A stretch of 64,000 nucleotides of DNA from a virus. The notes beneath the pieces are model-generated. The model searched no databases. It worked only from the letters and a program-made list of their open reading frames with translations, and was not told the DNA's origin. Numbering within the stretch: position 1 is the first letter of the stretch; every line of letters starts with the position of its first letter. The stretch is taken from the IMG/VR virus record IMGVR_UViG_3300009180_000022. The stretch is one strand, 5' to 3'. Made by a program: the position numbers and the translations under genes. This document shows positions 6,497 to 29,194 of this stretch, piece after piece.

Positions 6497-9400
6497 TCGA
6501 TATTGAAAACAATATAATACCTTTAATAGAAGGTCAGTTTCCTGCTTTCTATGAAGAAGAGGGACCGCTGTTCGTTTTATTTGTAAAGGAGTATTATGAG
6601 TGGCTTAATACTCAAACATACAATATTGATGGAGTCAATGTAGCAGGCGGCGCAATATACCAATCTAGATCACTACCAAATTATAGAGATATTGATAAGA
6701 CAGCGGATGAGTATCTTGTACACTTTAAAGAAAAGTATCTTAAGAATATTAATTTTAATTCAGAATCTAATCGTAGAACGCTTATAAAAGCAGCCCATGA
6801 TTTGTTTGCATAAAAGGATCAGAATTATCTATTGAGTTGTTATTTAATTTACTTTATGGAATAGGTGTGCAGGTTTATACCCCAGGCGATGCAGTTTTTA
6901 AGTGCTCAAATGCAAGGTGGACTATTCCAAAATATCTAGAAGTTCTTCCTACGTATAAGTCGCCTTTGCTTGCAGGTCAGCAAATAATAGGTTCGAGATC
7001 AGGTGCCACGGCCTTTGTAGAATATGTAATTACAAGACAGATCAATGGAAGATTTATAGATTTATTATTTCTTTCTAGCATTGATGGATTGTTTTTAGTA
7101 GATGATGTTGTTTCAACAGATGGTATTATTGCTGATTCTCCTACAGTAACAGGCTCATTTAATAGTATTGATATAACTCAGGCTGGTGATGGGTTTGTGG
7201 TTGGAGAGGAAGTAAATATAGTTTCAGCGTCGGGGGTAGAGGGCAGAGCGTTTGTTACATCGATAGAGGCAGTTACTGGTATCGTTCAGTTTGCTCTTAA
7301 CGATGGGGGATGGGGATTTTCAACATCATCTAACACACTCGTTTCTCAAAGTTCTCTATTACTTACTAATATAATAAACGCTAATACAGAAATTACATCA
7401 TTTACTAAATTTGAATTTGTTGAACAAAATAACTTTAGTCTTGCACTTAGTAATATAACCGGCAGTCTATCTACGGGTAACATACTTGCAACACCAGAAG
7501 GATCCTTATCAGTTGTTTTAAGGGTTGATCCTGGTGCAAATCCTAATACCGCAACTGTTCTTATCAACCCGGTATCTGGTACTACCTTTTCAAACAGCAT
7601 AATGTTCTCACCCAACAGTGCTTATGTTTATGTTGATAGAACTCTAGGATTTACACAAGGCAATGTTGTCAAACAGAATAACGGTACAAGTGATAATGCT
7701 AGGGGGGCTGTAAAGAGTACTGCTAATGTAGTGGTTTTAAACATCAATAGCGCAGTTACTGCGGCTAATGGTATTCACGTAGGTACATTTGTTATTCAAG
7801 CAACAACTCTTGCTACAGGCCGAGTTGTTGCTATTAATCGTGAAGCTAATTTTGTTTTTACAGCCGTAAACGCCATAGCAGTTTCCGTATCAACAGGTAC
7901 ATTTAGCGGTACTGATGCTATTAATATGTATGCAGATGCTGCAGGTATTAGCTATCTTTCAGTAGCAACACCGACGTCAATAATAAACGCACGCCAACTT
8001 GAACTAGAAGCAGTAACAGGTCTGTGGTCGGCTGGAAATACTATCATTTCTGAAAGTGCCTCCGCTATCACAGGTACAACATTACTTGCAAGTGCTGTTG
8101 GTGGAAAATTTACTTCAAACACCCAGTATCTTTCAACCGGTCAAATTATTGGATCTAATACTAGTGCAATTGGTATTATTTTAGAAAGTAATACATTTTT
8201 TGGTACAGGTCTAAGTACTATAAGGGGGCTAACATCTAATACATACGCCAATGTGTATCAGGTTTCTACTGGATCTAGTGCTGACTTTCAGGTTGGTTTT
8301 ATTAGTGATTCAGAGACAGTTCTACTATCTCCGGACTTATTAAATGGTAATAATCAAGGGCCTAACGGACCAGATACCCTGCCTTCGGTTCCATGGGCAT
8401 CCATGTTAATATCAGGTGCTAATAGTTCATACAATAACCTACATTCTGTATACATCGAGTCTGGAGGTACGGGGTATAGTAATACTGACACAGTCGTGCT
8501 AACGTCAGGGAGAAACATTAATGCTGCAAGTCTTACATATACAGTTGGAGCATTTCTTTCTAATACTTTTATAAGTCCCCTAGAGCTAACTCCATCGGGA
8601 ATATTTTTTAAATACACTGGTACTGAAATGTACTTAGTAGGTACCACATCCGATAAAATACACCAGTTCACATTATCAACTCCATGGGCAGTAAATACAG
8701 CAACATATACTGCTAATGTAAGCGTAAATCCTCAGGGTGCAAATCATCAAGATGTCTTTATATCATCAGATGGTAAATTTGTCTACACGGTTGAATCTAG
8801 CAGTGATAGAGTTCATCAGTATACCATGGCCACCCCATGGTCAATAGCTACTACAGCCTTTACGCGAACGTTTCAATTATCCGCCGCCTACCAGGCATTA
8901 GAGAGTGGTACTGTTGGAATGACCTTTAAACCGGATGGTACTAGCTTTTATCTTATAGGATCTGCTGGAGATACCATAGTACAGTTCGATCTTTCGGTTG
9001 CATGGGATATATCTACTGCATTTCAATCAAGTAAATCTCTTTATGTTAATCCTATTGAAACCAACCCAGGCGCATTAAGAATAACAGAAGACGGTACCAG
9101 GTTTATTCTTATTGGTACTACTGGTGATAGAGCACATGTATATAATCTAACTACACCCTGGGATATATCAACAGGTGTATTCGTAGGATCATCAAGCACT
9201 TGGGCAACCCTTGGCGCCGGACAAGCCGTTCCACAATCCGAAACAGGCGCAACAGGCTTTTATATTAAACCGACCGGTGATAAGTTATACGTTATAGGTA
9301 CTGCAATAGATACGGTTGCGGAATACAATGTAGCCAACGCCGGTGTTGTTCCACTTTCGAATGCTACTATTATTACGAATGCATCCGGAGTTATAACAGC

Positions 9401-11291
9401 ATGCACACTTGGAGCATCTAAGGGTGGTGCAAATATATTTTCAACACCTATAGCAACAGTACTTAATTCATCTGGAGGAGCTTCTACAGGATCGGCCGCA
9501 AGTCTAATTCCTGTATCTTCTCTAGGATTTCCAAAATATGCACTTGGGGATATAACATTTACTATTCTTGATCTGCTTAGATTTAATACAAGAACGATTG
9601 GAACTATTGCTAGTCTAACTGCAATCAATCCAGGTGAAAATTATAACCTGGACCCATTTGTGCTTGTACGTGAAGATTTGGTTGCAGCATACGGTAAGCG
9701 CGATTACATAATGAACATTACTAATCTAAGTAAAGGTACTGGGTTTACTCCTAATGAATTAGTAACGCAGTCATCAGGTACACCTGCACTTACATTACTA
9801 TCAAGTGCCTTTGTTTATAATAATTATGGTCCAACCCTTTCGTCTATAGTTACTGCAGCAAGTACAAACATACTACTTGTAGCGACGGTAGCAGCTAGCA
9901 ACACAATTACAGGTGCATCGTTAACTAGTGCTGTAATTCAACCTGGTATGTATGTTTCAGGTACAGGTATCCCAACCAATACGTATGTTGTATCGGTTAG
10001 CAGCGGAGTATCAGCAGTTCTTTCAAACGCTGCTACTGCCAGCAGCGCCGCTACAGCTCCAGGAACCATCACTATAACTACAAGTGGTACAGTAATTTTT
10101 GGGGCTGCGTTAACTACAGCAGCAATCGAGCCAGGAATGTATGTATACGGAACAGGTATACCAAATGGTGCATTAATTATTTCAATTAATACCGGTGTAT
10201 CGGCAGTTATATCTCTACCTGCTACAGCTTCTGGTACCATCACACTTACTACCGCCTATGGAATAGTTAGGAATGCATATGAGGTCGGTGAATTTATAAC
10301 CACTAATAATGGTATTTCTATTACAGGGACAGGGACAGTTTATAGTACTACAGCATCCGGTGGAGTAACTACCACAGTTCTTACATCAAACACCGGTACA
10401 TTCAACTCTACTATATCAACATCTAAACTCGCAGTAAGTACAAATGTTGGATTTAGTGTAGGGGATGCTGTTACTCAGTCAGGTGGTGGTAGTGGTACAG
10501 TGCTTGTAACTAATACAAGCACGATGATTATCAGAAATGTAACCGGTACATTTGCAATAAGCGGTAATAAAATAACTGGTACAGGTACTGCAAATGCTAA
10601 TATTACTGCAGTGACCAGTGCATTTAACGTGTATCAGATGTCAGGATCGACGTCAAAAGGCCTTACAAATATTAGCGGATATTCTGCATGCACCGCATCA
10701 TCTGTTGCAACAGGTAGAATAAAAAACCTTTCAAATACTTCTACTCTGTTTATAAAAAGGACTAGCTTGTTTGATGAGTTCATTAATAACGGAGGTACGT
10801 TAGTCGGAGAAATTTCCGGTGAGACTGCTACTGTAGTTTTTAGTGCCCCTGATACATCTTCTGATATAATTGGCCTTAACGCTAATATAACTGCTAATGT
10901 TATAACAACGACCGGTTCAATAACTGACTTAACACTCGTAGACTCTGGGATTTCATTCTATCAAGATCAAGGCGCCACATTCAGTTCGTTAGATGGTGCA
11001 AGGGTTGGAGCTGGTAAGATTAATCTTGGTGGTATAGGTTCCGGGTCTGGTAGATATACAACGTTTAGCGGCATATTGGACGATGTTAATTACATACACG
11101 ATGGTGAATATTATCAGGAATACTCGTATGAAGTACAGAGTAACAAACCACTAGATACATATTATAACGTACTTAAGCAACTGCTGCATGTTGCTGGAAC
11201 TAAAATGTTTGGAAGAGTAGTTACATCTTCAACCAGCATTATAGGAACTGATATAGTCCAGAGCAGCAAGACTATCGAACTAACTCCATAA
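6493..11291 (+). CDS. gp7: Baseplate wedge initiator (gp7-like), about 1600 aa, split by an apparent 1-bp deletion at ~6812 (ORFs 6493-6813 and 6837-11291)
   Basis: N-terminal IEGQFPAFYEEEGPLFVLFVKEYYEWL. Restoring one base gives HDLFA-S-KGSELSIELLFNLLYG, matching the conserved gp7 motif. C-terminal IHDGEYYQEYSYEV...LLHVAGTKMFG. Confidence 0.8.
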
Positions 11292-11294
11292 ATA
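11287..11294 (+). promoter_or_regulatory. Late promoter variant upstream of gp8
   Basis: CATAAATA overlapping the gp7 stop codon. Confidence 0.55.
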
Positions 11295-11299
11295 AAGAC

Positions 11300-13360
11300 A
11301 TGACCAAATTAGTAACAAAAGTTTTTAGTAAACATCTTATAGATCAGTTTGTCGAATCATTTACTGAGCCTGCTAATAGCGTGTATTACCTTGCCGCAAG
11401 TAGGCATATACCTTACAGTACCTCTAGTGGTGGTAGTGATGATTATCCACCTACACCCGGGGATAGCGTCCAAGATACACAGGTAGACCCCTACAATACT
11501 ATGGTATTCGGAAAAAAAGTAACTTCATCTGATATATCACTTATGATACCCAGGTACAACTGGACTACTGGCACAACCTATACATCATATGACCATACTG
11601 ATTCAGCATTGTTTGACAAACCTTTCTATGTCGTATCTTTTTCAGGTTCAGAATATTTTATTTATAAGTGTCTTGAAAATAATAGAAATAATCCTTCAAC
11701 CGTCGATCCAATATCCAGTACGTCAGAAGTCGCATTTAACCATATAACTACCGGTGATAATTATAAATGGAAGTTAATGTACAGGCTGCCAATGGCTACA
11801 TTTGAAAAGTTTGCAACAGCTGATTACATGCCGGTAGCACTAAGTAGTAACGTTTCAACTAATGCAATATCTGGTTCTATTGATTCAGTCAGAGTAGATT
11901 CCGGCACTCGTAATTGGATTTCTTCTTCTACTGGAGTTTTTAGTTCTGATGATATAGCTACCAGTATTCCAGATGGGCTAGGAACTCAACTGACGTACAG
12001 ATTAAATGCTAATTCATCAACTAGTTCTGATTTTTATCAGGGTAGTGCTCTATATATTTCTTCTGGTATAGGTGCAGGACAGCAAAGAAAAATTCTTTCA
12101 TATGAAGCTGTTACTAAGATAGCTGAAATAGACAGTCCGTTTGATGTAACCCCGCTAGCAGGATCTACTTACCTAACAGCACCGTATGTTACTATTACTG
12201 GTGATGGAGAAGGTGCAGTAGGTTTTGCAGCTGTAGCTTCAAATACAACAGTTAACAATTTTATTTATAGCGTATTAATAACTAACAGGGGCAGTAACTA
12301 CACGTATGCAAGCGCAGTAGTGACTGGTAATACTGGTGGTGATTCATATCCCCAAACAAATACAGTAGTCACTCCTATCATACCTCCAATAGGGGGACAT
12401 GGGTATCGTACTGTACAGGAACTAGGCAGTGATTCTATCGGTATTAGTGTTACTTTTGCAAACAACGAAAGTGGTTTTATTCCAGTAAGTAACGATTACC
12501 GCCAGATCATATTACTTAAGGATCCGTTATTTGATGGAGTCACATTAACCTTATCTAGCGCAACCGGTACATTTAGCCCTGGTGAGACTATTAATCAAAT
12601 TTCATACTCAACTTTAGTGGGAACGGTTGTTTGTAGCGCAACCTCCACTACAATAACCGGTACCGGTACTGAGTTTTTATCAGCTTTTAAACCTGGTGAT
12701 TCTATATTGTTAACTGATACTATTAGTACTTCTAAAAGCTTGAGAACGGTAGATACAGTTACTAGTAATACAATTCTTTCAGTAACATCAAACGTATCAT
12801 TCACACGTGCATCAGGTCAGTATGTTACAGTAGCTAAGGCCACAGTATTAGCAACTGGTATTAAGGTTGGTAATACAGGTAATTTCATTACAATGTCTAA
12901 TACTGAGGCAAAATTTTATACAGGTAAACCAGTCATAGGGTCCGTCTCTGGATACTTTGGCCCAAACGTAACAGCGATCAACGTACAGGATCACAACTTT
13001 AATAATTGGTCAACGTTTGATAATAGAACAAAAATATCATACATAAGTAATAATCAAGTGTTTAACACAGATGGGGTGGTATACCAAACAGCGACCGCAG
13101 ATAGTAGCCAATCAAACGCATATTTTCATTCAGCTAATGCCTCATTTATTTTTATAACTGATGATAGAGGACCTATTAACGCCGCCTCAAATGAGTATCT
13201 TCAACAGATAGGTAGTCCTGCAACATATGTACTTGGCGGAACTAAGTACCCACCCGACATTGTAAGATCGTCTGGAGAGATCGTATACATAGAGAACTAC
13301 AGCCCAATTACAAGATCAGATAATCAATCAGAAACCTTCAGATTAATTCTGAAATTCTAA
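11300..13360 (+). CDS. gp8: Baseplate wedge subunit gp8 (extended form)
   Basis: MVFGKKVTSSDISLMIPRYNWTTGTTY, YKCLENN, GDNYKWKLMY, IIPPIGGHG, NDYRQIILLKDP and SGEIVYIENYSPITRSDNQSETFRLILKF. Confidence 0.88.
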   Translation: MTKLVTKVFSKHLIDQFVESFTEPANSVYYLAASRHIPYSTSSGGSDDYPPTPGDSVQDTQVDPYNTMVFGKKVTSSDISLMIPRYNWTTGTTYTSYDHTDSALFDKPFYVVSFSGSEYFIYKCLENNRNNPSTVDPISSTSEVAFNHITTGDNYKWKLMYRLPMATFEKFATADYMPVALSSNVSTNAISGSIDSVRVDSGTRNWISSSTGVFSSDDIATSIPDGLGTQLTYRLNANSSTSSDFYQGSALYISSGIGAGQQRKILSYEAVTKIAEIDSPFDVTPLAGSTYLTAPYVTITGDGEGAVGFAAVASNTTVNNFIYSVLITNRGSNYTYASAVVTGNTGGDSYPQTNTVVTPIIPPIGGHGYRTVQELGSDSIGISVTFANNESGFIPVSNDYRQIILLKDPLFDGVTLTLSSATGTFSPGETINQISYSTLVGTVVCSATSTTITGTGTEFLSAFKPGDSILLTDTISTSKSLRTVDTVTSNTILSVTSNVSFTRASGQYVTVAKATVLATGIKVGNTGNFITMSNTEAKFYTGKPVIGSVSGYFGPNVTAINVQDHNFNNWSTFDNRTKISYISNNQVFNTDGVVYQTATADSSQSNAYFHSANASFIFITDDRGPINAASNEYLQQIGSPATYVLGGTKYPPDIVRSSGEIVYIENYSPITRSDNQSETFRLILKF

Positions 13361-20189: not shown

Positions 20190-20396
20190 ATGAAAGTAGA
20201 AGGCACAGATTTCGTTCGCGATACACACAATAATGCACTGATAAATACAAATGTTAGTGCGTTTATTCTATATAAGCAGCAACGCAATACACTGATTGCT
20301 CAAAGCGCTCAAGAAATTGAGATATCAAATCTCAAAAATGAGCTTACCCAAATGAAAAATTTGCTACAAGAATTAATTAGAGACAAGAATGGCTAA
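20190..20396 (+). CDS. Small conserved coiled-coil protein typically following the VrlC-like gene
   Basis: MKVEG..FVRD....ALINTN start and heptad-like C-terminus. Tightly packed with both neighbours. Confidence 0.65.
   Translation: MKVEGTDFVRDTHNNALINTNVSAFILYKQQRNTLIAQSAQEIEISNLKNELTQMKNLLQELIRDKNG
20240..20247 (+). promoter_or_regulatory. Possible late promoter for the fibre-collagen-enzyme unit
   Basis: GATAAATA inside the small gene, ~140 bp upstream of 20389. Confidence 0.4.
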
Positions 20397-23300
20397 ACCA
20401 GTATCAAACGTTACAATTGCAACCGACACCTTTGCCGGTTGGGTAGGAAAGAGTAATATTCTTTTAGATGCTCTTACTAACCTTACAGTTACAGTAGAAA
20501 CATCTACACTCGGCGCTAATGTATATGGTAATGGTAGTGTATTTGGTACGCTTTCAGCAAACGTACTAAGTGCAACAGTAATGAGGGGTGGAGGGGTTGG
20601 TAATACAGCCAACGTATCTACATTGACTATTGGTATAGCAAATTCTACAGTATCATCAAACGTAATTATTACTGGCTACACCGCCAATGTTACAGCAAAC
20701 AGTTTAAACGTTACTTCAAACTCAAACTTCTCTGGTAACACTCTAGTCTACAGTAATACTACCGGTAACGTCTCTGTTACAGCTACTAATACGGCTATAG
20801 GTGGTGGTTCTTTTGATGTTTCATCAAACACAAACATTAGATCTCGACTAATGTATGTATATGCAAACACCACCATTTCTGGTGCTAATACTATTATTAT
20901 CGCAGGTTCTGGACAGGCATCACAAACGTTTGATGCTAATGCTGCAGTTGAAACAGTTAATAATTCTATCGCGATAACAACAGCACCAACATATAGCATT
21001 AATGAACCGGTAGTATATACGGTTGCTGCTGGTAATACAGCGCTGGCCGGGCTTGTATCAGGTACAACGTATTACATTCAATTCTCTAATGCTACCAGTG
21101 TAAAATTATCTACCACACCCGGAGGTACAGCATTAACACTAACTAAAGGCCTAACACAAACCGGTCATAGTTTTGCCGGTATTAGCGGTAACGTTGCCAT
21201 TGGAGCATCTAATACTACCATTAGAGGTATTAATTTAAATATTCAATCAAATGTCAGTATTACAAGTGCAAATTTAAACTACACTAATGCAACAGGTAAC
21301 GTTTATGTAAATACAGCAATAGCATACATTACAGGTGGTAACGTAAGTATTACATCCAATACCTATATTAATACTACCAACACTACTGTTAATACTGCTA
21401 ACTTTTTACTGTCTGGGGGACAGGCTAACGTTACTTCTAACGTAAATATTACAAGTGCTAATTTAATTTATAATAACGCATCAGGGAATGCATCTATTAC
21501 ATCTGCTAATACTACTGTTGCAGGCGGTAACTTTAATATATCGTCTAACGTCAGCATTACAGGTGCTAATTTATCTTATGTTAACGCGTCTGGTAATGTA
21601 AGTATTAATACTGCAGCCGTATATGTTAGGGGTGGTACCGTAAGGGTATTCTCCAATAGCATATCATCCGGTGCTAATACTATTATTATAGCAGGTTCAG
21701 GTCAAGCATCACAAACGTTTGATGCAAATGCTGCTGTAGAAACAGTTAATAATTCTATAGCGATAACAACAGCACCAACATATAGCATCAACGATCCGTT
21801 AGTTTATACGGTTGCAGCAGGTAATACTGCACTTACCGGGCTTGCATCAGGTACTACCTACTATATCCAATTCTCTAACGCCACCAGTGTAAAGTTAGCC
21901 TCAATACCGGGCGGATCAGCGCTTACACTAACTAAAGGCCTAACACAAACCGGTCATAGTTTTGCCGGTGTTAGTGGTAACGTAGTTATAGGTTCCTCTA
22001 ATACTACAATTAGAGGTATTGATTTAAATATTCAATCGAATGTTAACATTACAAGTGCTAATTTAATTTATAATAACGCATCAGGGAATGCATCTATTAC
22101 ATCTGCTAATACAACTGTTGCAGGTGGTAACGTAAATATATCGTCTAACGTCAGTATTACAAGTGCAAATTTAAACTACACTAATGCAACAGGTAACGTT
22201 TATGTAAATACAGCAATAGCATACATTACAGGTGGTAACGTAAGTATATCGTCTAACGTGAGTATAACAGGTGCTAATTTATCTTACGTTAGCGCGTCTG
22301 GTAACGTAAGTATTAATACTGCAGCCGTATATGTTAGGGGTGGTACCGTAAGGGTATTCTCCAATAGCGTCACGTCTGGTGCAAACACCATTATTATAGC
22401 AGGTTCAGGTCAAGCCCTCGCTACATTTAATTCTAATACTGATGTAGATAATACAACAGGGTTAATTACCATAGGCGCAACTGCGGCTAGCTACACAGTT
22501 AATGATCCGTTAGTTTATACGGTTGCAGCAGGTAATACTGCACTGACAGGACTTACATCAGGGTCTACCTTTTATATTCAATCTACAACTAGTACGGCCA
22601 TAAAGTTATCTTCAATACCAGGTGGTGCTGCAATCTCCCTTACAAAAGGAGTAACTGAAGCAGGTCACAGTTTTACAGGAGTTAGTGGTAATGTAGTTAT
22701 AGGTTCCTCTAATACCACCATTAGAGGTATTGATTTAAATATTCAATCGAATGTCAGTATTACAGGTGCAAATTTAAATTACACTAATGCATCAGGTAAT
22801 GTTTATATTAATACTGCAATAGCATACATTACAGGTGGTAACGTAAGTATATCATCGAATGTTAACATTACCAGCGCTAATTTAATTTATAACAATGCAA
22901 TTGGTAACGCATCGATTACATCTGCTAATACTACTGTTGCTGGCGGTAACTTTAACATATCATCTAATATTAGTGCTACCGGTGTAACCTTAATATACAA
23001 TAACGCATCAGGGAATGTATCGATTACATCTGCAAATACAACAGTAGCAGGTGGCGTGTTGAATGTTACATCCAACACCAATTTAAGACCTGCCCAGGTT
23101 ATCGTATATGCAAATACTGTTATGTCAGGCGCTAATGTTGATATTATCGCAGGTTCTGGACAAGCATCACAGTCGTTTAATTCTAATACTGCTGTAGAAA
23201 CTGTTAATAATTCTATTGCAATAACAGCATCATCAACATATAGCATTAACGATCCGGTAGTGTATACTGTCGCCGCTGGTAATACAGCACTTACCGGGCT

Positions 23301-24363
23301 TGCATCAGGTACTACGTATTACATTCAATTCTCTAATGCTACCAGTGTAAAATTATCTACCACACCAGGCGGGGCTGCACTTGCACTAACAAAGGGGTTA
23401 ACACAAACTGGCCATAGTTTTGCCGGTGTTAGTGGTAACGTTTCAATAGGTTCAGCTAATACCACGATCAACGGCACCACATTTAATGTACAGGCAAACG
23501 TTAATATAACGGGCGCAAACGTTATAATTAATAACTCGTCTGGTAACGTAATAATCACCTCAGCAAACACAAAGTTTGACGGTGGAGATTTATATTCAAC
23601 TTCTAATGTTAACTTTGCCGGTGCCAAAGTTACATCTTCAGCTAATATTGATATAACTGCTACACTCGTCATATTTAACAACGCTTCAGGTAACGTTGCC
23701 ATAACTGCATCTAATACGACGATTACTGGTGGCGCTATCAACCTAGGATCGAACGTTTCATCCAATGCTGCAGCCATCACGACAACAGGTAACGTGACTG
23801 CAAATGCGTTTGCTGCAACTGTTGTTAGAGGTGGCGGTATAGCTACTTACGGTGTTTTAGCAGTTGGTTTTGCAAATTCTACCGTATCCTCTAACGTAAC
23901 TATCAATGGCAACACAACTACCATCAGAAGTACGGATGTATTAATTGATTCAACTAACGTACTAACTGTTAACAATGGTATTACTGCTAACGGTAATATT
24001 ACACTTGCCAATACCGTTTCGTTTGGTACGATATCGATAATTACAGCAAAGACGGCCGCGGCGCAAACCTTTGCAACGGCTGCCGTACAGAATGAGATAG
24101 ACGCCTTTACTATTGCAAACTTCTCAGCTGCTAAATATTCAATTAGCGCAGTACATGACGGTAATTCGAATAACAAGATTATGACTGAAATTTCGGTTGT
24201 ATATGGGCATACAAATGCACACATGACTGAATACGGTACAATCTTCTCGAATACACAATACTCTACGTTCTATGTTGAATCAAACACAACACACGTTAAA
24301 CTACTCGCTAACTCTACATTAACACCTGTGACATATAAAATGGTTAGAACCGCTCTGACCTAA
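20389..24363 (+). CDS. Asn/Thr/Ser-rich fibre protein with four internal globular repeats and a C-terminal putative docking domain
   Basis: N-terminal V..TDTF.GW..K.N anchor-like motif and beta-strand repeats. C-terminal D.F.IANFSAAKYSI...EISVVY....MTEYG is shared with the 29266 fibre. Confidence 0.7.
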   Translation: MAKPVSNVTIATDTFAGWVGKSNILLDALTNLTVTVETSTLGANVYGNGSVFGTLSANVLSATVMRGGGVGNTANVSTLTIGIANSTVSSNVIITGYTANVTANSLNVTSNSNFSGNTLVYSNTTGNVSVTATNTAIGGGSFDVSSNTNIRSRLMYVYANTTISGANTIIIAGSGQASQTFDANAAVETVNNSIAITTAPTYSINEPVVYTVAAGNTALAGLVSGTTYYIQFSNATSVKLSTTPGGTALTLTKGLTQTGHSFAGISGNVAIGASNTTIRGINLNIQSNVSITSANLNYTNATGNVYVNTAIAYITGGNVSITSNTYINTTNTTVNTANFLLSGGQANVTSNVNITSANLIYNNASGNASITSANTTVAGGNFNISSNVSITGANLSYVNASGNVSINTAAVYVRGGTVRVFSNSISSGANTIIIAGSGQASQTFDANAAVETVNNSIAITTAPTYSINDPLVYTVAAGNTALTGLASGTTYYIQFSNATSVKLASIPGGSALTLTKGLTQTGHSFAGVSGNVVIGSSNTTIRGIDLNIQSNVNITSANLIYNNASGNASITSANTTVAGGNVNISSNVSITSANLNYTNATGNVYVNTAIAYITGGNVSISSNVSITGANLSYVSASGNVSINTAAVYVRGGTVRVFSNSVTSGANTIIIAGSGQALATFNSNTDVDNTTGLITIGATAASYTVNDPLVYTVAAGNTALTGLTSGSTFYIQSTTSTAIKLSSIPGGAAISLTKGVTEAGHSFTGVSGNVVIGSSNTTIRGIDLNIQSNVSITGANLNYTNASGNVYINTAIAYITGGNVSISSNVNITSANLIYNNAIGNASITSANTTVAGGNFNISSNISATGVTLIYNNASGNVSITSANTTVAGGVLNVTSNTNLRPAQVIVYANTVMSGANVDIIAGSGQASQSFNSNTAVETVNNSIAITASSTYSINDPVVYTVAAGNTALTGLASGTTYYIQFSNATSVKLSTTPGGAALALTKGLTQTGHSFAGVSGNVSIGSANTTINGTTFNVQANVNITGANVIINNSSGNVIITSANTKFDGGDLYSTSNVNFAGAKVTSSANIDITATLVIFNNASGNVAITASNTTITGGAINLGSNVSSNAAAITTTGNVTANAFAATVVRGGGIATYGVLAVGFANSTVSSNVTINGNTTTIRSTDVLIDSTNVLTVNNGITANGNITLANTVSFGTISIITAKTAAAQTFATAAVQNEIDAFTIANFSAAKYSISAVHDGNSNNKIMTEISVVYGHTNAHMTEYGTIFSNTQYSTFYVESNTTHVKLLANSTLTPVTYKMVRTALT
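20881..23439 (+). repeat. Four ~310 bp intragenic direct repeats (~20881-21192, 21670-21981, 22378-22692, 23128-23439) plus shorter shuffled spacer repeats
   Basis: Repeated AGSGQASQTFDANAAVETVNNSIAIT...YTVAAGNTAL.GL.SGTTYYIQFSNATSVKL...LTKGLTQTGHSFAG, with near-identical DNA stretches. Confidence 0.9.
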
Positions 24364-24394
24364 TAATAAAAACAATTAGCGGAAAGGGAAGCTA

Positions 24395-26464
24395 ATGGCG
24401 TCAAATACACAAAATTTTAGAGTTAAGTACGGTGCAGATGTAACCCTAGGGCTTTCTGCTAATACTTTATCAATCACATCTACTGCCAACGTTGGTGGTA
24501 ATATGGGTATTAAAGGTGATCTTCAGGTTGAAGGTAACATCAATTCTTTTGGTGCAGTTAGTTATAGCGCCGGTACTATTAACCTAAACAACGCCCAAAG
24601 CACTCCTACAGCAGTAGCACCTACGCTTGATGCAGCTGTAGTAGCCAAGAGAGGCACAAGCGCTGACGTACAGGTCAAGTGGAATGAAACGATTGATAGG
24701 TGGGAGTTTACCAATGATGGAACGTTGTATATTCCTTTACTCTCATATCCTAATCTAACATTTGCATTTGATACCGGTACTGATACTGCAACAGACCCTG
24801 GCGCTGGTAAGTTTAGGTTTAACACTGGAACAACATCAACCGTAACACAGATTGCATTAAACAATGTTGAATATAAAGGCGGTAATGTTCGAAGCTTTAT
24901 ATCAAGCTGGACTAGTAGTAGTGCTATAAATGGATTTTTAATCTTGCGTAGCTATAGCGACCCAAGTAAAATAATGACGTTTAGCGTTAATGGTAGGGCC
25001 AGCCAAACCGGGTTCATGCAATTAAATGTAATTAATATATCGACAGGTAGCGGATTATTTACTAGTGGTGAATTGGTCAGCATGCATTTTTCAGCATCCG
25101 GTGATAAAGGTCAAAAGGGTGAGATAGGCGATAAAGGTCAAAAAGGAGAAAAGGGTGATAAAGGCGAAAAAGGCGAAAAGGGTGATAAAGGTGAAGTTGG
25201 AGATAAAGGTCAAAAGGGCGAGAGAGTAAATAGCGGGTCATATAATTCATCTACTGATACCGTTACCTATACTAATTCTGACGCATCTACTTTTACTATA
25301 ACCGGATTCAAAGGTCAGAAGGGCGAGATTGGAGATAAAGGCGAAAAAGGTCAGAAGGGTGAGATTGGAGATAAGGGTCAAAAAGGTGAGCGTGTAAATT
25401 CCGGAGCATATAATGCTGGTACTGATACCGTTACCTATACTAATTCTGACGCATCTACTTTTACTATAACCGGATTCAAAGGCCAAAAAGGCGAAACGGG
25501 TGCACGTGTATCGTCTGCAGTCTTTACTGATGCTACCAACACCACTACCTTTACCGAATCTGACGGATCAACATTTACAGTATCTGGCCTAAAGGGTGAT
25601 AAGGGCGAAAAAGGTCAAAAGGGTGAAGTTGGAGATAAAGGTCAAAAAGGTGAAACCGGTGCACGTGTATCATCTGCAGTCGCTAATAACACTACCAACA
25701 CCACTACCTTTACCGAATCTGACGGATCAACCTTTACAGTAGGTGGCCTAAAGGGGGATAAGGGTGAAAAGGGTGAAAAAGGTGAAAAGGGAGAAAAAGG
25801 CGAAAAAGGTCAAAAAGGCGAAGTTGGTGATAAAGGCCAAAAAGGCGAAAAAATTACCGCGGTAACCTATTCAGACGCTTTGAATACTCTTACATTTACA
25901 AACTCTGATACAACTACTCTTTCTATAGCTGGTATTAAAGGTCAAAAAGGCGAAGTTGGTGATAAAGGCCAAAAAGGTGAAATAGGCGCCAAAGGCGACA
26001 AAGGCGAAAAAGGTCAAAAGGGCGATGCTGGAGGTTTTACAACAGGGGATAACGCACAGGTTAACTCATTAGGTGTTGGAGTAGCAGCATCAGGTACTGC
26101 AGGCACAATTCTTGCTACTGGTGATATTACTGCTTTCTACTCTGATAAAAGACTGAAGGACATTGAAGGTAACATACCTAACGCGTTAGAACTTGTAACT
26201 AAACTGAATGGGGTATATTATACTAATAATGACCTTGCAAAATACTACGGATATGATGATACATCGAGAATGATAGGTGTTATTGCTCAGGAAGTTCAAG
26301 CAACAATACCAGAAGCTGTCAAGCCTGCACCTTTTGATATGGGAGTAGATAATACAAGTAAGTCAGGTAATAATTACTTAACTGTACAGTATGAAAAAAT
26401 TGTACCGTTACTTATCGAGGCGATCAAGGAACTTAACATTAAGGTAGATAAACTTCAACGTTAA
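24395..26464 (+). CDS. Collagen-like fibre: six interrupted Gly-X-Y segments (Lys in Y, no Pro) and a C-terminal peptidase S74 intramolecular chaperone
   Basis: GDKGQKGEIGDKGQKGEK... repeats at ~25100-26030. FY-SDKRLK autocleavage motif (~26138-26158) followed by IGVIAQEV and YEKIVPLLIEAIKEL. Confidence 0.9.
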   Translation: MASNTQNFRVKYGADVTLGLSANTLSITSTANVGGNMGIKGDLQVEGNINSFGAVSYSAGTINLNNAQSTPTAVAPTLDAAVVAKRGTSADVQVKWNETIDRWEFTNDGTLYIPLLSYPNLTFAFDTGTDTATDPGAGKFRFNTGTTSTVTQIALNNVEYKGGNVRSFISSWTSSSAINGFLILRSYSDPSKIMTFSVNGRASQTGFMQLNVINISTGSGLFTSGELVSMHFSASGDKGQKGEIGDKGQKGEKGDKGEKGEKGDKGEVGDKGQKGERVNSGSYNSSTDTVTYTNSDASTFTITGFKGQKGEIGDKGEKGQKGEIGDKGQKGERVNSGAYNAGTDTVTYTNSDASTFTITGFKGQKGETGARVSSAVFTDATNTTTFTESDGSTFTVSGLKGDKGEKGQKGEVGDKGQKGETGARVSSAVANNTTNTTTFTESDGSTFTVGGLKGDKGEKGEKGEKGEKGEKGQKGEVGDKGQKGEKITAVTYSDALNTLTFTNSDTTTLSIAGIKGQKGEVGDKGQKGEIGAKGDKGEKGQKGDAGGFTTGDNAQVNSLGVGVAASGTAGTILATGDITAFYSDKRLKDIEGNIPNALELVTKLNGVYYTNNDLAKYYGYDDTSRMIGVIAQEVQATIPEAVKPAPFDMGVDNTSKSGNNYLTVQYEKIVPLLIEAIKELNIKVDKLQR
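25100..26030 (+). repeat. Collagen Gly-X-Y repeat region with five ~27-aa non-collagen spacers
   Basis: Hand count of about 60 triplets, about 45 with Lys in Y. Identical 63-bp duplication (25252-25314 and 25420-25482) and 40-bp duplication (25533-25572 and 25692-25731). Confidence 0.92.
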
Positions 26465-26479
26465 ACCACAAACTATATT

Positions 26480-28456
26480 ATGAAAATCTTTGTTATTAAT
26501 CTTGCACGAAGAACTGATAGACTTAAACACATTAGCGGACAACTCAACGGGTATGATTTTGTACCCGTTGAGGCTATTGATGGCAATACGTTAAGTTTAT
26601 CAGGTTCCCAACATAAATATTATAAGGATTGGGTCGACCCGTTACTTAATCGACGCCTTACAATTGGTGAGATAGCCACTACCCTTTCCCATATCAAGGT
26701 ATGGAATATGGTTGCTGAGCTAGACGAACCAGCACTTATTTTAGAAGATGATTCAATTCTATCTGGAGACTTTAGACCGGCTGATATTTTAGGGTACATG
26801 GAACGGTGCGATATGTTGTATCTCAACCACCGTGAAATGGTGGAATCTAATGCACGTGAAATCAACGATGAGCTTGTCCGTCCTTACTACCCCTATCTAG
26901 GTAATGCATATGTCATTACACCAAAGTTTGCAAGGGATCTTATAGCACTTGGATTACATCAATGCATTATTCCTGTTGATGAATTTTTTCCTATAATTAA
27001 TGGTGTAGATTTTAATCACTATTGTCTTTCAGAAAGTTCTAATATTAAAAAGTGTTTTGTTGATCTGTCAAAAAAGTTCAGTCGCGAAACATACAAGATT
27101 TATGCATACAAAACGCCCATATTTGAACAACAATCTAGAAGTGTAATGGGTTCTGATATCGAGAATTCTCCTACTATTCCTGATGATTATTACTTTCTGA
27201 CTGTAGGTACAGACGAATCGCAGATGGATGCATTATACGCATCGTGTAAGAGGCATAACGTAAATATTATTAATCTCGGTAAAGGAAAAACTTGGACTGG
27301 TGGAAATATGGAAGCCGGGCCAGGTGGTGGGTATAAGCTTAACCTGGTAAAAACATTCCTTGAATCAAGCAACTTACCTGATAATACTATAATCGGTTTC
27401 TTTGATGGGTATGATGTGTTAATTAACGACACTGAACAGACGATCATTGATAAGTTTAAAAGCTTTGAGGCATCGATAGTGTTTGCTGCAGAGAAGACGT
27501 GTTGGCCTGATTCTAGCATAGCATCACAATACCCACCTTGCGATACAGAGTATAGATACCTAAACAGTGGGTGTTACATAGGATATGCGGGTAGCTTAAA
27601 ACAGATTATATGGTCTGTAGACCCTTATGGTGACGTAGTAGGCGATACGTCTGACGATCAACTTTACTTGCATCTAAAATACCTTGAAAATTACGAGGTA
27701 CCAGGAGTACGAATTAGATTAGATCATAGGAATGAGTTGTTTCAATGTTTGAGTGGAGCCGAGGATAGTCTAGGGTTTACAAGTAGTGATAATATCTTTA
27801 ACACTGAAACCAAAACATGTCCGAGTATACTTCACGGTAATGGCGGAAAATTCCAAAAGGAAGTATTTCGCAAGATTTATGTTGATAAATTTCTTCCTGA
27901 TTTAATGCAATTCAATTCTGCGTCTAAATTTAGCATCGTTGCGCCTGAGATACTTCTAACAGATTTCTTCACCAAAAGAGACTGTGAGTATATTATTCAG
28001 AAGGCAGAACTTATTAATCAGTGGGAGCAGCTCCCCGGGGACAAGTTTCCAGGTCAAGAATTAAGAATTAAAAAGCTTGATCAAGGGCTGTATAACCTCA
28101 TGGAAGAAAAGATTAGAACAGGACTATACCCGGCAATCGAGCAGTACTGGAGACCGCTCCAGATGTATGGTATTAGAGACATGTTTATAATTAAGTACCA
28201 GCATGGGTCTCAAATAAGCCTTCCGTGTCATCATGACGCCTCACTTGTTACAATAACGGTCCGATTAAACGATGAATATGAGGGCGCTGAGTTATATTTT
28301 TATAGGCAAAATTACAGTAATATTGATGTAAAAACTGGAGAGGCTATTATATGGCCAGGACAGGTTACCCATGGTCATGAATCGAGACCTCTTATAAGCG
28401 GGATTAAGTATAGTCTTGTTATATGGACGTCACGCTATAAAGGCGATGTAAACTGA
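26480..28456 (+). CDS. Three-domain putative collagen-modifying enzyme: GT25 (COLGALT-like), PLOD/LH3-type glycosyltransferase and 2OG-Fe(II) lysyl hydroxylase
   Basis: GT25: VINLARRTDR, EAIDG, DPLLNRRLTIGEI..LSH, LILEDD, IPVDEFFP, GSDIENS. PLOD GT: LTVGT, LGKGKTWTGG, GGGYK, FFDGYDV, FAAEKTCWP, RYLNSGCYIGY, DDQLY, LDHRNELFQCL, LHGNG. Hydroxylase: FIIKY, LPCHHDAS, YEGAELYF, WPGQVTHGHES, GIKYSLV. Confidence 0.88.
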   Translation: MKIFVINLARRTDRLKHISGQLNGYDFVPVEAIDGNTLSLSGSQHKYYKDWVDPLLNRRLTIGEIATTLSHIKVWNMVAELDEPALILEDDSILSGDFRPADILGYMERCDMLYLNHREMVESNAREINDELVRPYYPYLGNAYVITPKFARDLIALGLHQCIIPVDEFFPIINGVDFNHYCLSESSNIKKCFVDLSKKFSRETYKIYAYKTPIFEQQSRSVMGSDIENSPTIPDDYYFLTVGTDESQMDALYASCKRHNVNIINLGKGKTWTGGNMEAGPGGGYKLNLVKTFLESSNLPDNTIIGFFDGYDVLINDTEQTIIDKFKSFEASIVFAAEKTCWPDSSIASQYPPCDTEYRYLNSGCYIGYAGSLKQIIWSVDPYGDVVGDTSDDQLYLHLKYLENYEVPGVRIRLDHRNELFQCLSGAEDSLGFTSSDNIFNTETKTCPSILHGNGGKFQKEVFRKIYVDKFLPDLMQFNSASKFSIVAPEILLTDFFTKRDCEYIIQKAELINQWEQLPGDKFPGQELRIKKLDQGLYNLMEEKIRTGLYPAIEQYWRPLQMYGIRDMFIIKYQHGSQISLPCHHDASLVTITVRLNDEYEGAELYFYRQNYSNIDVKTGEAIIWPGQVTHGHESRPLISGIKYSLVIWTSRYKGDVN

Positions 28457-28468
28457 TATTTAAGGATT

Positions 28469-28476
28469 AATAAATA
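28469..28476 (+). promoter_or_regulatory. Late promoter variant upstream of 28495
   Basis: Intergenic AATAAATA. Confidence 0.6.
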
Positions 28477-28494
28477 CCTTAAAAGGGCACGACA

Positions 28495-28827
28495 ATGGCT
28501 ACTAAAGCAAATTTAAGCATCGATCAAGGGGCGACCTTTAGCACGTCAATTACACTAACAGATTCGTCAGATAACATAGTAGATCTGACTGGATATACTG
28601 GTGCCTCTCAAATGCGTAAAAGCGCCACCTCATCAGCATATACAGCATTTACTGTTGTGCTTGGTAATACAGCAGGGACCATCAATCTCTCTCTTTGAGC
28701 CAATTCAACAGCAAACGTTGCCGCTGGTCGCTATCTTTATGATGTTGAACTTACAGAAACTGCATCAAACACAATCTCTAGAGTTTTTGAAGGTATAGTA
28801 ACGGTAAATCCAAACATCACGAGGTAA
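28495..28827 (+). CDS. Conserved small virion/fibre-associated protein interrupted by an in-frame TGA at 28696-28698
   Basis: MATKANLSIDQGATFS...DLTGYTGASQMRKS. The same frame continues past the TGA as ANSTANVAAGRYLYDVELT...RVFEGIVTVNPNITR to TAA 28825-28827, 1 bp before the next ATG. Confidence 0.75.
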
Positions 28828-28828
28828 T

Positions 28829-29194
28829 ATGTCACTAGTAGCCATACCAACACAGGTATTAAGGGTCAATAGAAAAGACACTTTAATTACATCTGATACA
28901 CCGATCACCTTAAGAACAACTACATCCAACTATCTAGAAACGTTAAAGGATGTAAATGTAACTGGGGCTGCCAACAACAGCCTTTTTGTATACAATACAA
29001 CGTTATCAAAGTGGGAAGACCATTCAATATCCGGAACTGCTAACGAAGTAGAGGTTAGCTTTAGTTCTCAAGACATTACTATTGGTCTACCTAACGATGT
29101 AACTGTAGGTACTCTAACTGCTACGACTGTAACTACAACGGATTTCAACGTCTCATTGTTGAGCTTCAGCAATATCGACTGCGGAGAGTTCTAG
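28829..29194 (+). CDS. Small fibre-associated structural protein
   Basis: LETLKDVNV...NNSLFVYNTTLSKWE motif and terminal IDCGEF, both common in fibre-associated proteins of environmental T4-like phages. Confidence 0.6.
   Translation: MSLVAIPTQVLRVNRKDTLITSDTPITLRTTTSNYLETLKDVNVTGAANNSLFVYNTTLSKWEDHSISGTANEVEVSFSSQDITIGLPNDVTVGTLTATTVTTTDFNVSLLSFSNIDCGEF

Follow-up and report, generated by a model that had tools for sequence, protein, structure and literature searches.

A putative single-chain collagen-lysine modification enzyme encoded beside a collagen-like fibre gene in a phage genome

Introduction

Glycosylation of hydroxylysine (Hyl) is regarded as animal chemistry, and mimivirus is the one viral case in which it has been shown. 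The human enzymes LH3 (PLOD3) and COLGALT1 (GLT25D1) form a non-covalent complex (PDB 8zgc; PMC11897130), and R699 of Acanthamoeba polyphaga mimivirus is a galactosyl-hydroxylysine glucosyltransferase (PMC9546862, PMC12279948). The literature on such collagen-modifying enzymes cites animals, some fungi and bacteria, and mimivirus; in our literature searches, for which most subscription journals lay outside coverage, no paper reported one from a tailed phage. Here we analyse a 64,000-nucleotide stretch of viral DNA (IMG/VR record IMGVR_UViG_3300009180_000022), referred to as the window, in which a collagen-like tail fibre gene is followed directly by a gene for a protein with two glycosyltransferase (GT) domains and one lysyl hydroxylase (LH)-like domain dependent on 2-oxoglutarate (2OG) and Fe(II). 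From the sequences we infer a single-chain collagen-lysine modification enzyme whose substrate, in the cytoplasm of the infected cell, would be the collagen-like fibre of the phage itself. Animals and mimivirus are known to perform this chemistry; the novelty lies in its putative presence in bacteriophages and in the fusion of the three domains in one chain.

Results

Domain composition of the enzyme

The enzyme gene and the domains recognized within it are the following.

26480 to 28456, + strand: three-domain enzyme gene, 658 amino acids (open reading frame, ORF; phrog_61 matched over the full length, 1.9e-84)
26480 to 27139, + strand: GT25 domain, COLGALT1 GT2-like, about residues 1-220, with E89-D90-D91 (PF01755, 7.6e-24)
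27191 to 27847, + strand: PLOD-type GT domain, residues 238-456, with D309/D312, D392-D393 and H452 (PF25342, 5.2e-57)
27917 to 28456, + strand: LH-like 2OG-Fe(II) domain, about residues 480-658, with H584/D586/H633/K643 (matches to LH3 and mimivirus L230)

The protein scored 85.1 bits against Glyco_transf_25 (PF01755; cut-off 24) and 193.3 bits against GT_PLOD (PF25342; cut-off 27). An earlier note, made from the letters of the window without database searches, had named GT25, PLOD-GT and 2OG-Fe(II) domains here, and all three were matched by Pfam, the last at one bit under its cut-off. Each domain was then compared by sequence with all solved structures in the PDB. The closest solved relative of the GT25 domain was the catalytic GT2 half of human COLGALT1 (1.9e-12, aligned over residues 2-173), and solved bacterial GT25 enzymes reached 0.003 at best. 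COLGALT1 residues before about 300 were unmatched; of the GT1+GT2 architecture of animal COLGALT the phage enzyme has the GT2-like half alone and, while it resembles the catalytic half, it is not a full COLGALT orthologue. The PLOD-GT domain matched mimivirus R699 (2.6e-34) and the GT domain of LH3 (4e-31). The C-terminal domain, searched alone, matched solely LH3 (1.9e-9) and the LH domain of mimivirus L230 (3.8e-9), the next entry being PiuC at 0.31, and by this comparison it is closer to lysyl hydroxylases than to other 2OG oxygenases.

An AlphaFold model of the enzyme, made with 25 homologues, had a mean predicted local distance difference test score (pLDDT) of 88.2. Full-length LH3 ranked top in a Foldseek search with this model (4.7e-31). 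The LH3 GT domain (6wfv), of GT-A fold, superposed with a template modelling (TM) score of 0.85 and a root mean square deviation (rmsd) of 2.8 Å, R699 with an rmsd of 2.0-2.2 Å and the L230 LH domain with a TM score of 0.75; COLGALT1 was found at 1.2e-14. The structural check proposed in the earlier note and the sequence searches thus agree in placing the three domains nearest COLGALT1, LH3/R699 and LH3/L230, respectively.

Database names for this protein point elsewhere. PHROGs calls the family only '2OG-Fe(II) oxygenase', and the JGI name for homologues is 'GR25 family glycosyltransferase involved in LPS biosynthesis', in keeping with the Pfam title of PF01755 as a lipopolysaccharide (LPS) biosynthesis family. 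Glycosyltransferases in the fibre region of pelagimyophages have likewise been read as O-chain modifiers (PMC7029224). That the enzyme modifies the host surface (LPS or O-chain), for example to block superinfection, is nevertheless very unlikely: its GT25 domain is far nearer to COLGALT1 than to any solved bacterial GT25 enzyme (1.9e-12 against 0.003), the domain fused to it matches lysyl hydroxylases only, and both the linkage to collagen genes and the strict placement of Lys described below would be left unexplained. Base J and the hypermodified bases of phages also follow a scheme in which an oxygenase is paired with glycosyltransferases, and some of the PHROG families hit by the C-terminal domain are labelled as nucleic-acid proteins, for instance 'DNA endonuclease' (phrog_2297, 2.5e-12). 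Hydroxylation and glycosylation of DNA bases against restriction, in the way of TET/JBP-type oxygenases and their partner glucosyltransferases, is nonetheless highly improbable. The sequence hits include no TET/JBP or AlkB structure, the C-terminal domain matching LH3 and L230 only; moreover, within the late fibre block only 15 bp separate the gene from a fibre gene, and this explanation too would not account for the collagen linkage.

Conservation of catalytic motifs

Motif conservation was judged over 25 homologues of 37-86% identity, in all of which E89-D90-D91, D309, D312, D392-D393, H452, H584, D586, H633 and K643 were invariant. In the GT25 domain, E89-D90-D91 aligned to the unusual EDD motif of COLGALT1, which binds the catalytic Mn in the GT2 domain (PMC12003778). 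In the PLOD-type domain, D309 and D312 lie in FDGYDV, aligned to VDSYDV (DxxD) of LH3, H452 lies in an HGNG motif aligned to the same four residues of LH3, and D392-D393 aligned to the acidic helix of LH3 (DDDQL). The DxxD motif, distal His and Asp-Asp helix of LH3 we take, from the LH3 structure papers, to bind Mn and the sugar donor. In the C-terminal domain, which has a double-stranded beta-helix fold, H584, D586 and H633 form a 2-His-1-Asp Fe(II) triad aligned to HHD and THxHE of LH3. Because these residues are invariant in the 25 homologues, all three domains appear to have been kept catalytically competent.

The fibre gene and its junction with the enzyme gene

The proposed substrate is encoded immediately upstream of the enzyme, as follows.

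24395 to 26464, + strand: collagen-like tail fibre gene, 689 amino acids (ORF; Pfam Collagen 9.6e-29, Peptidase_S74 3.5e-11)
24395 to 25099, + strand: non-collagen N-terminal fibre domain, residues 1-235 (without a Gly-X-Y run of at least 4 triplets)
25100 to 26038, + strand: collagen region, residues 236-548 (six Gly-X-Y runs of 14, 10, 4, 9, 12 and 12 triplets)
26141 to 26323, + strand: Peptidase_S74-type intramolecular chaperone domain, residues 583-643 (PF13884, 43.6 bits; cut-off 22)
26465 to 26479, + strand: spacer between the fibre and enzyme genes, exactly 15 bp (ORF coordinates)

The fibre scored 99.4 bits against Collagen (PF01391; cut-off 27.2) and also matched PHROG tail-fibre families (best 7e-27). 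The PF01391 match and the uninterrupted Gly-X-Y runs predict a collagen triple helix. When runs of at least 4 triplets were counted (61 triplets in total), Lys occupied Y in 45 and X in none, and no triplet contained Pro, in agreement with the hand count of the earlier note (about 45 of about 60, Pro-free); inclusion of a 3-triplet N-terminal run gave 46 of 64. The X position was filled almost only by Glu, Asp or Gln, and all 11 Pro residues of the protein fell outside the Gly-X-Y runs.

The collagen runs are spaced, like beads on a string, by five related 26-residue Thr/Ser-rich interruptions with a consensus resembling V-x-S-x-x-x-x-x-x-T-x-T-x-T-F-T-x-S-D-x-S-T-F-T, and the DNA of the region (25100-26038) contains tandem repeats with periods of 168 and 159 bp. 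The chaperone domain begins with SDKRLK (residues 583-588), in which the Ser and the Lys five residues on are presumably an autocleavage pair, by comparison with endosialidase chaperones.

The coordinates agree with the same-strand, 15-bp spacing given in the earlier note. A scan of the + strand from 24363 to 28456 turned up no terminator-like site and, given this and the 15-bp gap, the fibre and enzyme genes are presumably co-transcribed. The T4 late-promoter motif TATAAATA was not enriched in the window (11 found, 11.3 expected) and precedes neither the fibre nor the enzyme gene; sigma-70 and terminator scans gave nothing above chance near the pair. Logan contigs from one lake-water metatranscriptome matched 24160-26466, the fibre, at 98-99.7% identity, one of them with a single mismatch in 286 nt. 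No such contig covered the enzyme gene, and contigs can show neither transcription nor its absence.

Linkage of the enzyme to collagen genes across phages

Relatives of the enzyme are numerous. In a word-index search 199 protein clusters passed E ≤ 1e-10, almost all of them metagenomic and with the three domains at full length, and an exhaustive profile-free search gave 231 clusters (50% identity) at E ≤ 1e-30; IMG/VR contains at least 553 loci that encode relatives. The 89 loci analysed formed 36 clusters at 80% identity, 23 of which had at least 5 kb of upstream sequence. A collagen ORF was counted as linked if it had at least 8 triplets and lay on the same strand. Such an ORF was found within 5 kb of the enzyme in 21 of the 23 clusters and within 150 bp in 7, with shared ancestry ignored. 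The placement of the collagen gene varied: it could lie upstream, directly downstream, or beyond a tail assembly chaperone and a small oxygenase. The backbones of the carriers were likewise diverse, including myovirus contigs of 140-165 kb, complete genomes of about 60 kb, cyanomyoviruses like S-CAM9 and the 45-kb Roseobacter phage CRP-6.

To provide a base rate, 28 related long or complete records were compared. Pfam Collagen exceeded its cut-off in 10 of the 12 records with the enzyme and in 5 of the 16 without it (one-sided Fisher p = 0.008), and the enzyme carriers usually had many Collagen hits. The base rate rests on these long records because capsid-anchored loci were mostly short contigs; use of a gp10-like baseplate gene as the anchor gave one near-identical fragment and no base rate. 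Since the enzyme adjoins collagen genes across many phages, these phages probably decorate their own fibres.

In two IMG/VR contigs of 72 and 90 kb (L085 and L088; estimated to be 20-25% complete), apparently from jumbo phages, the enzyme and the small oxygenase lie beside large fibre-like ORFs that are not collagens.

Position of lysine in enzyme-linked collagens

Lysyl hydroxylases, which are active as dimers, act on Lys at the Y position, that is, in X-Lys-Gly. In 88 enzyme-linked collagen ORFs (loci L002-L090; 10,830 triplets), Lys was present at Y 2,461 times and at X not once, whereas Arg was present at X 46 times. Lys-rich phage collagens from loci without the enzyme had Lys at X in 67 of 3,619 triplets (1.9%), and at this rate about 200 occurrences would have been expected in the linked set. 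Related phages without the enzyme often had collagens free of Lys: that of P-SSM2 has none in about 250 triplets, and that of S-SCSM2R has Gln at Y.

Collagen composition differed among enzyme groups. In the clade of the window's enzyme (42-47% identity), the collagens were dominated by Lys and free of Pro. In a larger, more distant group (36-39% identity) they were of the Gly-Pro-Thr/Gly-Gln-Lys type, where Thr fills about 55% and Lys about 20% of Y positions and Pro about 30% of X positions, and in a third group they contained about 7% Lys. The expectation of the earlier note that the enzyme accompanies Gly-X-Lys rather than Gly-X-Pro collagens was not borne out, most related loci carrying Gly-Pro-Thr/Gly-Gln-Lys collagens. 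IMG/VR was also scanned for six consecutive Gly-X-Lys codons, and the whole records so found were searched for the enzyme: of 37 records, 1 encoded the full enzyme and 2 gave single-domain hits. Richness in Gly-X-Lys was accordingly rejected as a mark of the system (1 of 37 records with Lys runs, 0 of the 8 near-complete ones) and is probably a general means of stabilizing the helix.

These data also bear on whether the enzyme modifies Lys of non-collagen virion or fibre proteins, its nearness to collagen genes reflecting no more than placement in the fibre module. The non-collagen ORFs adjoining the enzyme in L085 and L088 would fit such a role, and LH enzymes can hydroxylate X-Lys-Gly outside collagens, for example in antibodies (PMC11551027). 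We consider it unlikely, however: a collagen ORF lay within 5 kb in 21 of the 23 clusters and adjacent in 7, any collagen was present in just 5 of 16 related records lacking the enzyme, and placement in a module does not predict the total lack of Lys at X in the linked collagens.

Proposed reaction sequence

If collagen is the substrate, the following sequence may be envisaged. The C-terminal 2OG/Fe(II) domain would hydroxylate Y-position Lys in X-Lys-Gly to Hyl; the N-terminal GT25 domain would then add a first hexose, which by analogy with COLGALT1 would be galactose from UDP-Gal; and the PLOD-type GT domain would add a second, glucose from UDP-Glc by analogy with LH3 and R699. The product would be Glc-Gal-Hyl, which might stabilize the fibre or mask it. 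What the substrate is, in which order the steps proceed, which sugars are added and that the modified fibre is built into virions are all part of this proposal rather than observations.

A partial or different chemistry on the same substrate is possible, though we consider it doubtful. Lys would be hydroxylated, and the sugars would not be Gal and then Glc: glucose might be placed straight onto Hyl, as is reported for L230, other hexoses might be used, or one GT domain might be merely structural. Alignments cannot tell the specificity for donor sugars, and the titles of PDB entries indicate that LH3-type GT domains take several UDP-sugars in crystals. COLGALT1 itself includes a non-catalytic GT domain (PMC12003778), and relatives with two of the three domains exist, namely PLOD-GT plus LH proteins of about 417 residues and GT25 plus PLOD-GT proteins of about 470 residues. 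Set against this, the metal-binding motifs of both GT domains are complete and invariant in the 25 homologues, which argues that both are catalytic, and it is with the catalytic rather than the structural half of COLGALT1 that the GT25 domain aligns.

A companion small oxygenase

In many loci, the genes for the collagen and the three-domain enzyme flank that of a second, small oxygenase of the prolyl 4-hydroxylase (P4H) superfamily (about 185 residues; Pfam 2OG-FeII_Oxy_3, 4e-15); three such loci are given as examples.

L006, 9351 to 9905: small oxygenase
L001 (S-CAM9), 7447 to 8004: small oxygenase
L016, 6568 to 7137: small oxygenase

It was present in 35 of 46 loci with Pro-containing collagens, defined as those with at least 0.1 Pro per triplet, and missing from 13 of 17 Pro-poor loci, the window included (locus-level Fisher p = 0.0002, loci counted without correction for ancestry). 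In the four Pro-poor loci that do have it, an adjoining second collagen ORF contains Pro. Assignment as a prolyl hydroxylase by sequence failed: the closest solved relatives were PKHD/PiuC-type enzymes (1.7e-5), which matched better than the P4H of PBCV-1 (weak, 0.011). The correlation with Pro nevertheless suggests, as a hypothesis, that the small oxygenase is a matched prolyl-modifying partner.

More generally, tailed phages may carry toolkits for the post-translational modification of collagen that suit the make-up of their fibres: an LH and two GT domains would occur wherever Lys stands at Y, and the small P4H-like oxygenase mainly with Pro-containing collagens. We give this reading an even chance.

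Homologues outside phages and domain variants

Among 185,579 species, represented by one genome each, only a handful had near-full-length relatives of the enzyme, and several of these were contigs of metagenome-assembled genomes (MAGs) that resemble phage loci, collagen gene included. Animal PLODs rank lower in the hit list (for example Lingula PLOD1, 1.6e-49).

A split version is present on one strand of Streptomyces kronopolitis NZ_BMND01000001.1 (L301; 8951-12567), where a small Gly-Thr-Pro/Gly-Pro-Pro collagen-like ORF is followed 0.5 kb downstream by the split enzyme, first a PLOD-GT plus LH ORF (478 residues) and then a GT25 ORF (259 residues). A full three-domain homologue was found among transposases and insertion sequence elements at 10001-11944 of an 865-kb contig from a Candidatus Poriferihabitaceae MAG, a sponge symbiont (L298/L304).

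Domain variants were also seen. Three proteins of about 900-1100 residues from short metagenome contigs (P0153, P0155, P0170) combine GT25, PLOD-GT, OGFOD2-like and 2OG domains and look like a GT25 domain joined to a full-length PLOD. Other variants have methyltransferase domains at the N terminus (P0078) or a duplicated GT25 domain (P0086).

The window and its phage

PHROG profiles in the window identified baseplate wedge proteins, tail sheath, portal, a gp23-type major capsid protein, large terminase and a UvsW-type helicase, and these matches assign the window to a T4-like myovirus, as its late structural module. The major capsid protein shares 69% identity with its counterpart in Stenotrophomonas phage DLP_6 and about 63-65% with its counterparts in Methylophilales, Pelagibacter and cyanobacterial myophages. 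A megablast search of 24000-29000 against isolated phages gave no match at the DNA level, and at the protein level only 11 records of isolated phages contained enzyme relatives, at about 36% identity. Isolated carriers include the Synechococcus phages S-CAM9 and S-PRM1 and Roseobacter phage CRP-6. Window DNA was seen again in freshwater metagenomes from at least two studies, in one of them as zero-mismatch pieces across both genes, and because of this recurrence the phage is taken to be a freshwater one.

Between 13370 and 43275, no ORF other than 26480-28456 matched any Pfam enzyme family. The earlier description of this gene as the only enzyme-like one in about 23 kb of fibre genes can thus be extended to about 30 kb. 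Upstream of the pair, 20389-24363 encodes a 1324-residue fibre protein that matched no Pfam family except DUF2141 below threshold; it consists of several long internal repeats, almost identical to one another, with a high content of Asn, Thr and Ser.

Discussion

That the Lys residues of the fibre are the substrate of the neighbouring enzyme appears to us probable, and the earlier proposal of fibre-Lys modification is strengthened by domain similarity, invariant motifs and collagen linkage, although the specificity for Gly-X-Lys that had been part of it did not stand. Several observations weigh against this interpretation. We infer the chemistry of the phage homologues from sequence, and the donor sugars are unreadable from sequence, Gal and Glc being assigned by analogy. 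Luther et al. (2011) reportedly found that mimivirus L230 puts glucose, not galactose, on Hyl. The match to 2OG-FeII_Oxy_3 (1.9e-5) reaches 26.0 bits against a Pfam cut-off of 27, and K643 stands at the position of the Arg that in LH3 binds the C5 carboxylate of 2OG. Lys binds 2OG in prolyl 4-hydroxylases, and the change from Arg to Lys is probably compatible with function while departing from LH3.

The genomic evidence has exceptions of its own. The linkage and base-rate counts treat loci related by shared ancestry as independent. No collagen-like ORF lay within 10 kb of the sponge-symbiont copy, and none lay within 10 kb of the enzyme in L085 or L088, which are fragments of phages estimated at about 360 kb. 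The whole L085 and L088 records gave no Collagen match over the Pfam cut-off, one of them having a single weak hit (6.7e-4); a non-collagen substrate or a distant collagen gene is possible in these two. All 8 near-complete records with six-triplet Gly-X-Lys runs lacked the enzyme and, as Lys-rich phage collagens are common without it, the fibre can exist unmodified. Ion pairs in Lys-Gly-Glu and Lys-Gly-Asp stabilize Pro-free helices and could account for the composition of the fibre without modification. Hydroxylation at C5 and O-glycosylation leave the amine of Lys free, so the ion-pair and modification explanations are compatible.

If modification of the fibre is correct, it would constitute a new modification of phage virions, which could affect fibre stiffness, protease resistance, adsorption and recognition. 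At least some 'LPS-type' glycosyltransferases and '2OG-Fe(II) oxygenases' annotated in the fibre regions of aquatic phages would have to be reinterpreted, and hundreds of phage sequences could be used to test where the metazoan enzymes came from. The enzyme would also be small and suited to the cytoplasm, so that recombinant collagen with Hyl-linked sugars might be made in E. coli from a single added gene, and it could serve as a minimal model for the LH3-COLGALT1 complex of humans. Should the broader reading of matched toolkits hold, hydroxylysine glycosylation of the animal type would be a widespread virion chemistry of aquatic phages.

Comparison with known systems

Phage-encoded glycosylation of virions has a precedent in mycobacteriophages, whose glycosyltransferases, encoded beside structural genes, reportedly glycosylate the phages' own virion proteins, a finding attributed to Freeman et al. 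in 2023 (listed in PMC12619734 and PMC12801897); the acceptors are reportedly capsid and tail-tube proteins. That system differs in its GT families and acceptors and involves no hydroxylase, hydroxylysine or collagen. The bacterial GT25 enzymes of LPS and lipooligosaccharide synthesis, such as a beta-1,4-galactosyltransferase (PDB 8xlz), share PF01755 and the GT-A fold with the phage domain, but they are stand-alone enzymes that lack a fused hydroxylase and use lipid-linked oligosaccharide as their acceptor.

The mimivirus proteins L230, an LH joined to a glycosyltransferase (LH domain, PDB 6ax6), and R699 (PDB 9dyt) modify collagen-like proteins of the very virus that encodes them. By sequence, the middle domain of the phage enzyme matches R699 best, and the LH domain of L230 matches its C-terminal domain. 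Mimivirus is an amoebal giant virus with these activities on separate proteins, whereas the phage has a bacterial host and all three modules fused, including a COLGALT-like GT25 domain.

The closest counterpart in composition is the human LH3 and COLGALT1 pair, which contains the same three catalytic modules with aligned motifs and matching folds, each phage domain being about 18-33% identical to its human relative. The phage fibre likewise offers X-Lys-Gly, the acceptor motif of the human system. The human activities reside in two proteins of about 740 and 620 residues that act as a complex in the endoplasmic reticulum; the phage enzyme would act in the bacterial cytoplasm as one chain of 658 residues, a covalent counterpart in the order GT25, PLOD-GT, LH. 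A Lys replaces the 2OG-binding Arg of LH3. Since both the accessory domain of LH3 and the non-catalytic GT1 domain of COLGALT1 are lacking, the phage enzyme is a minimal fusion of the three catalytic modules.

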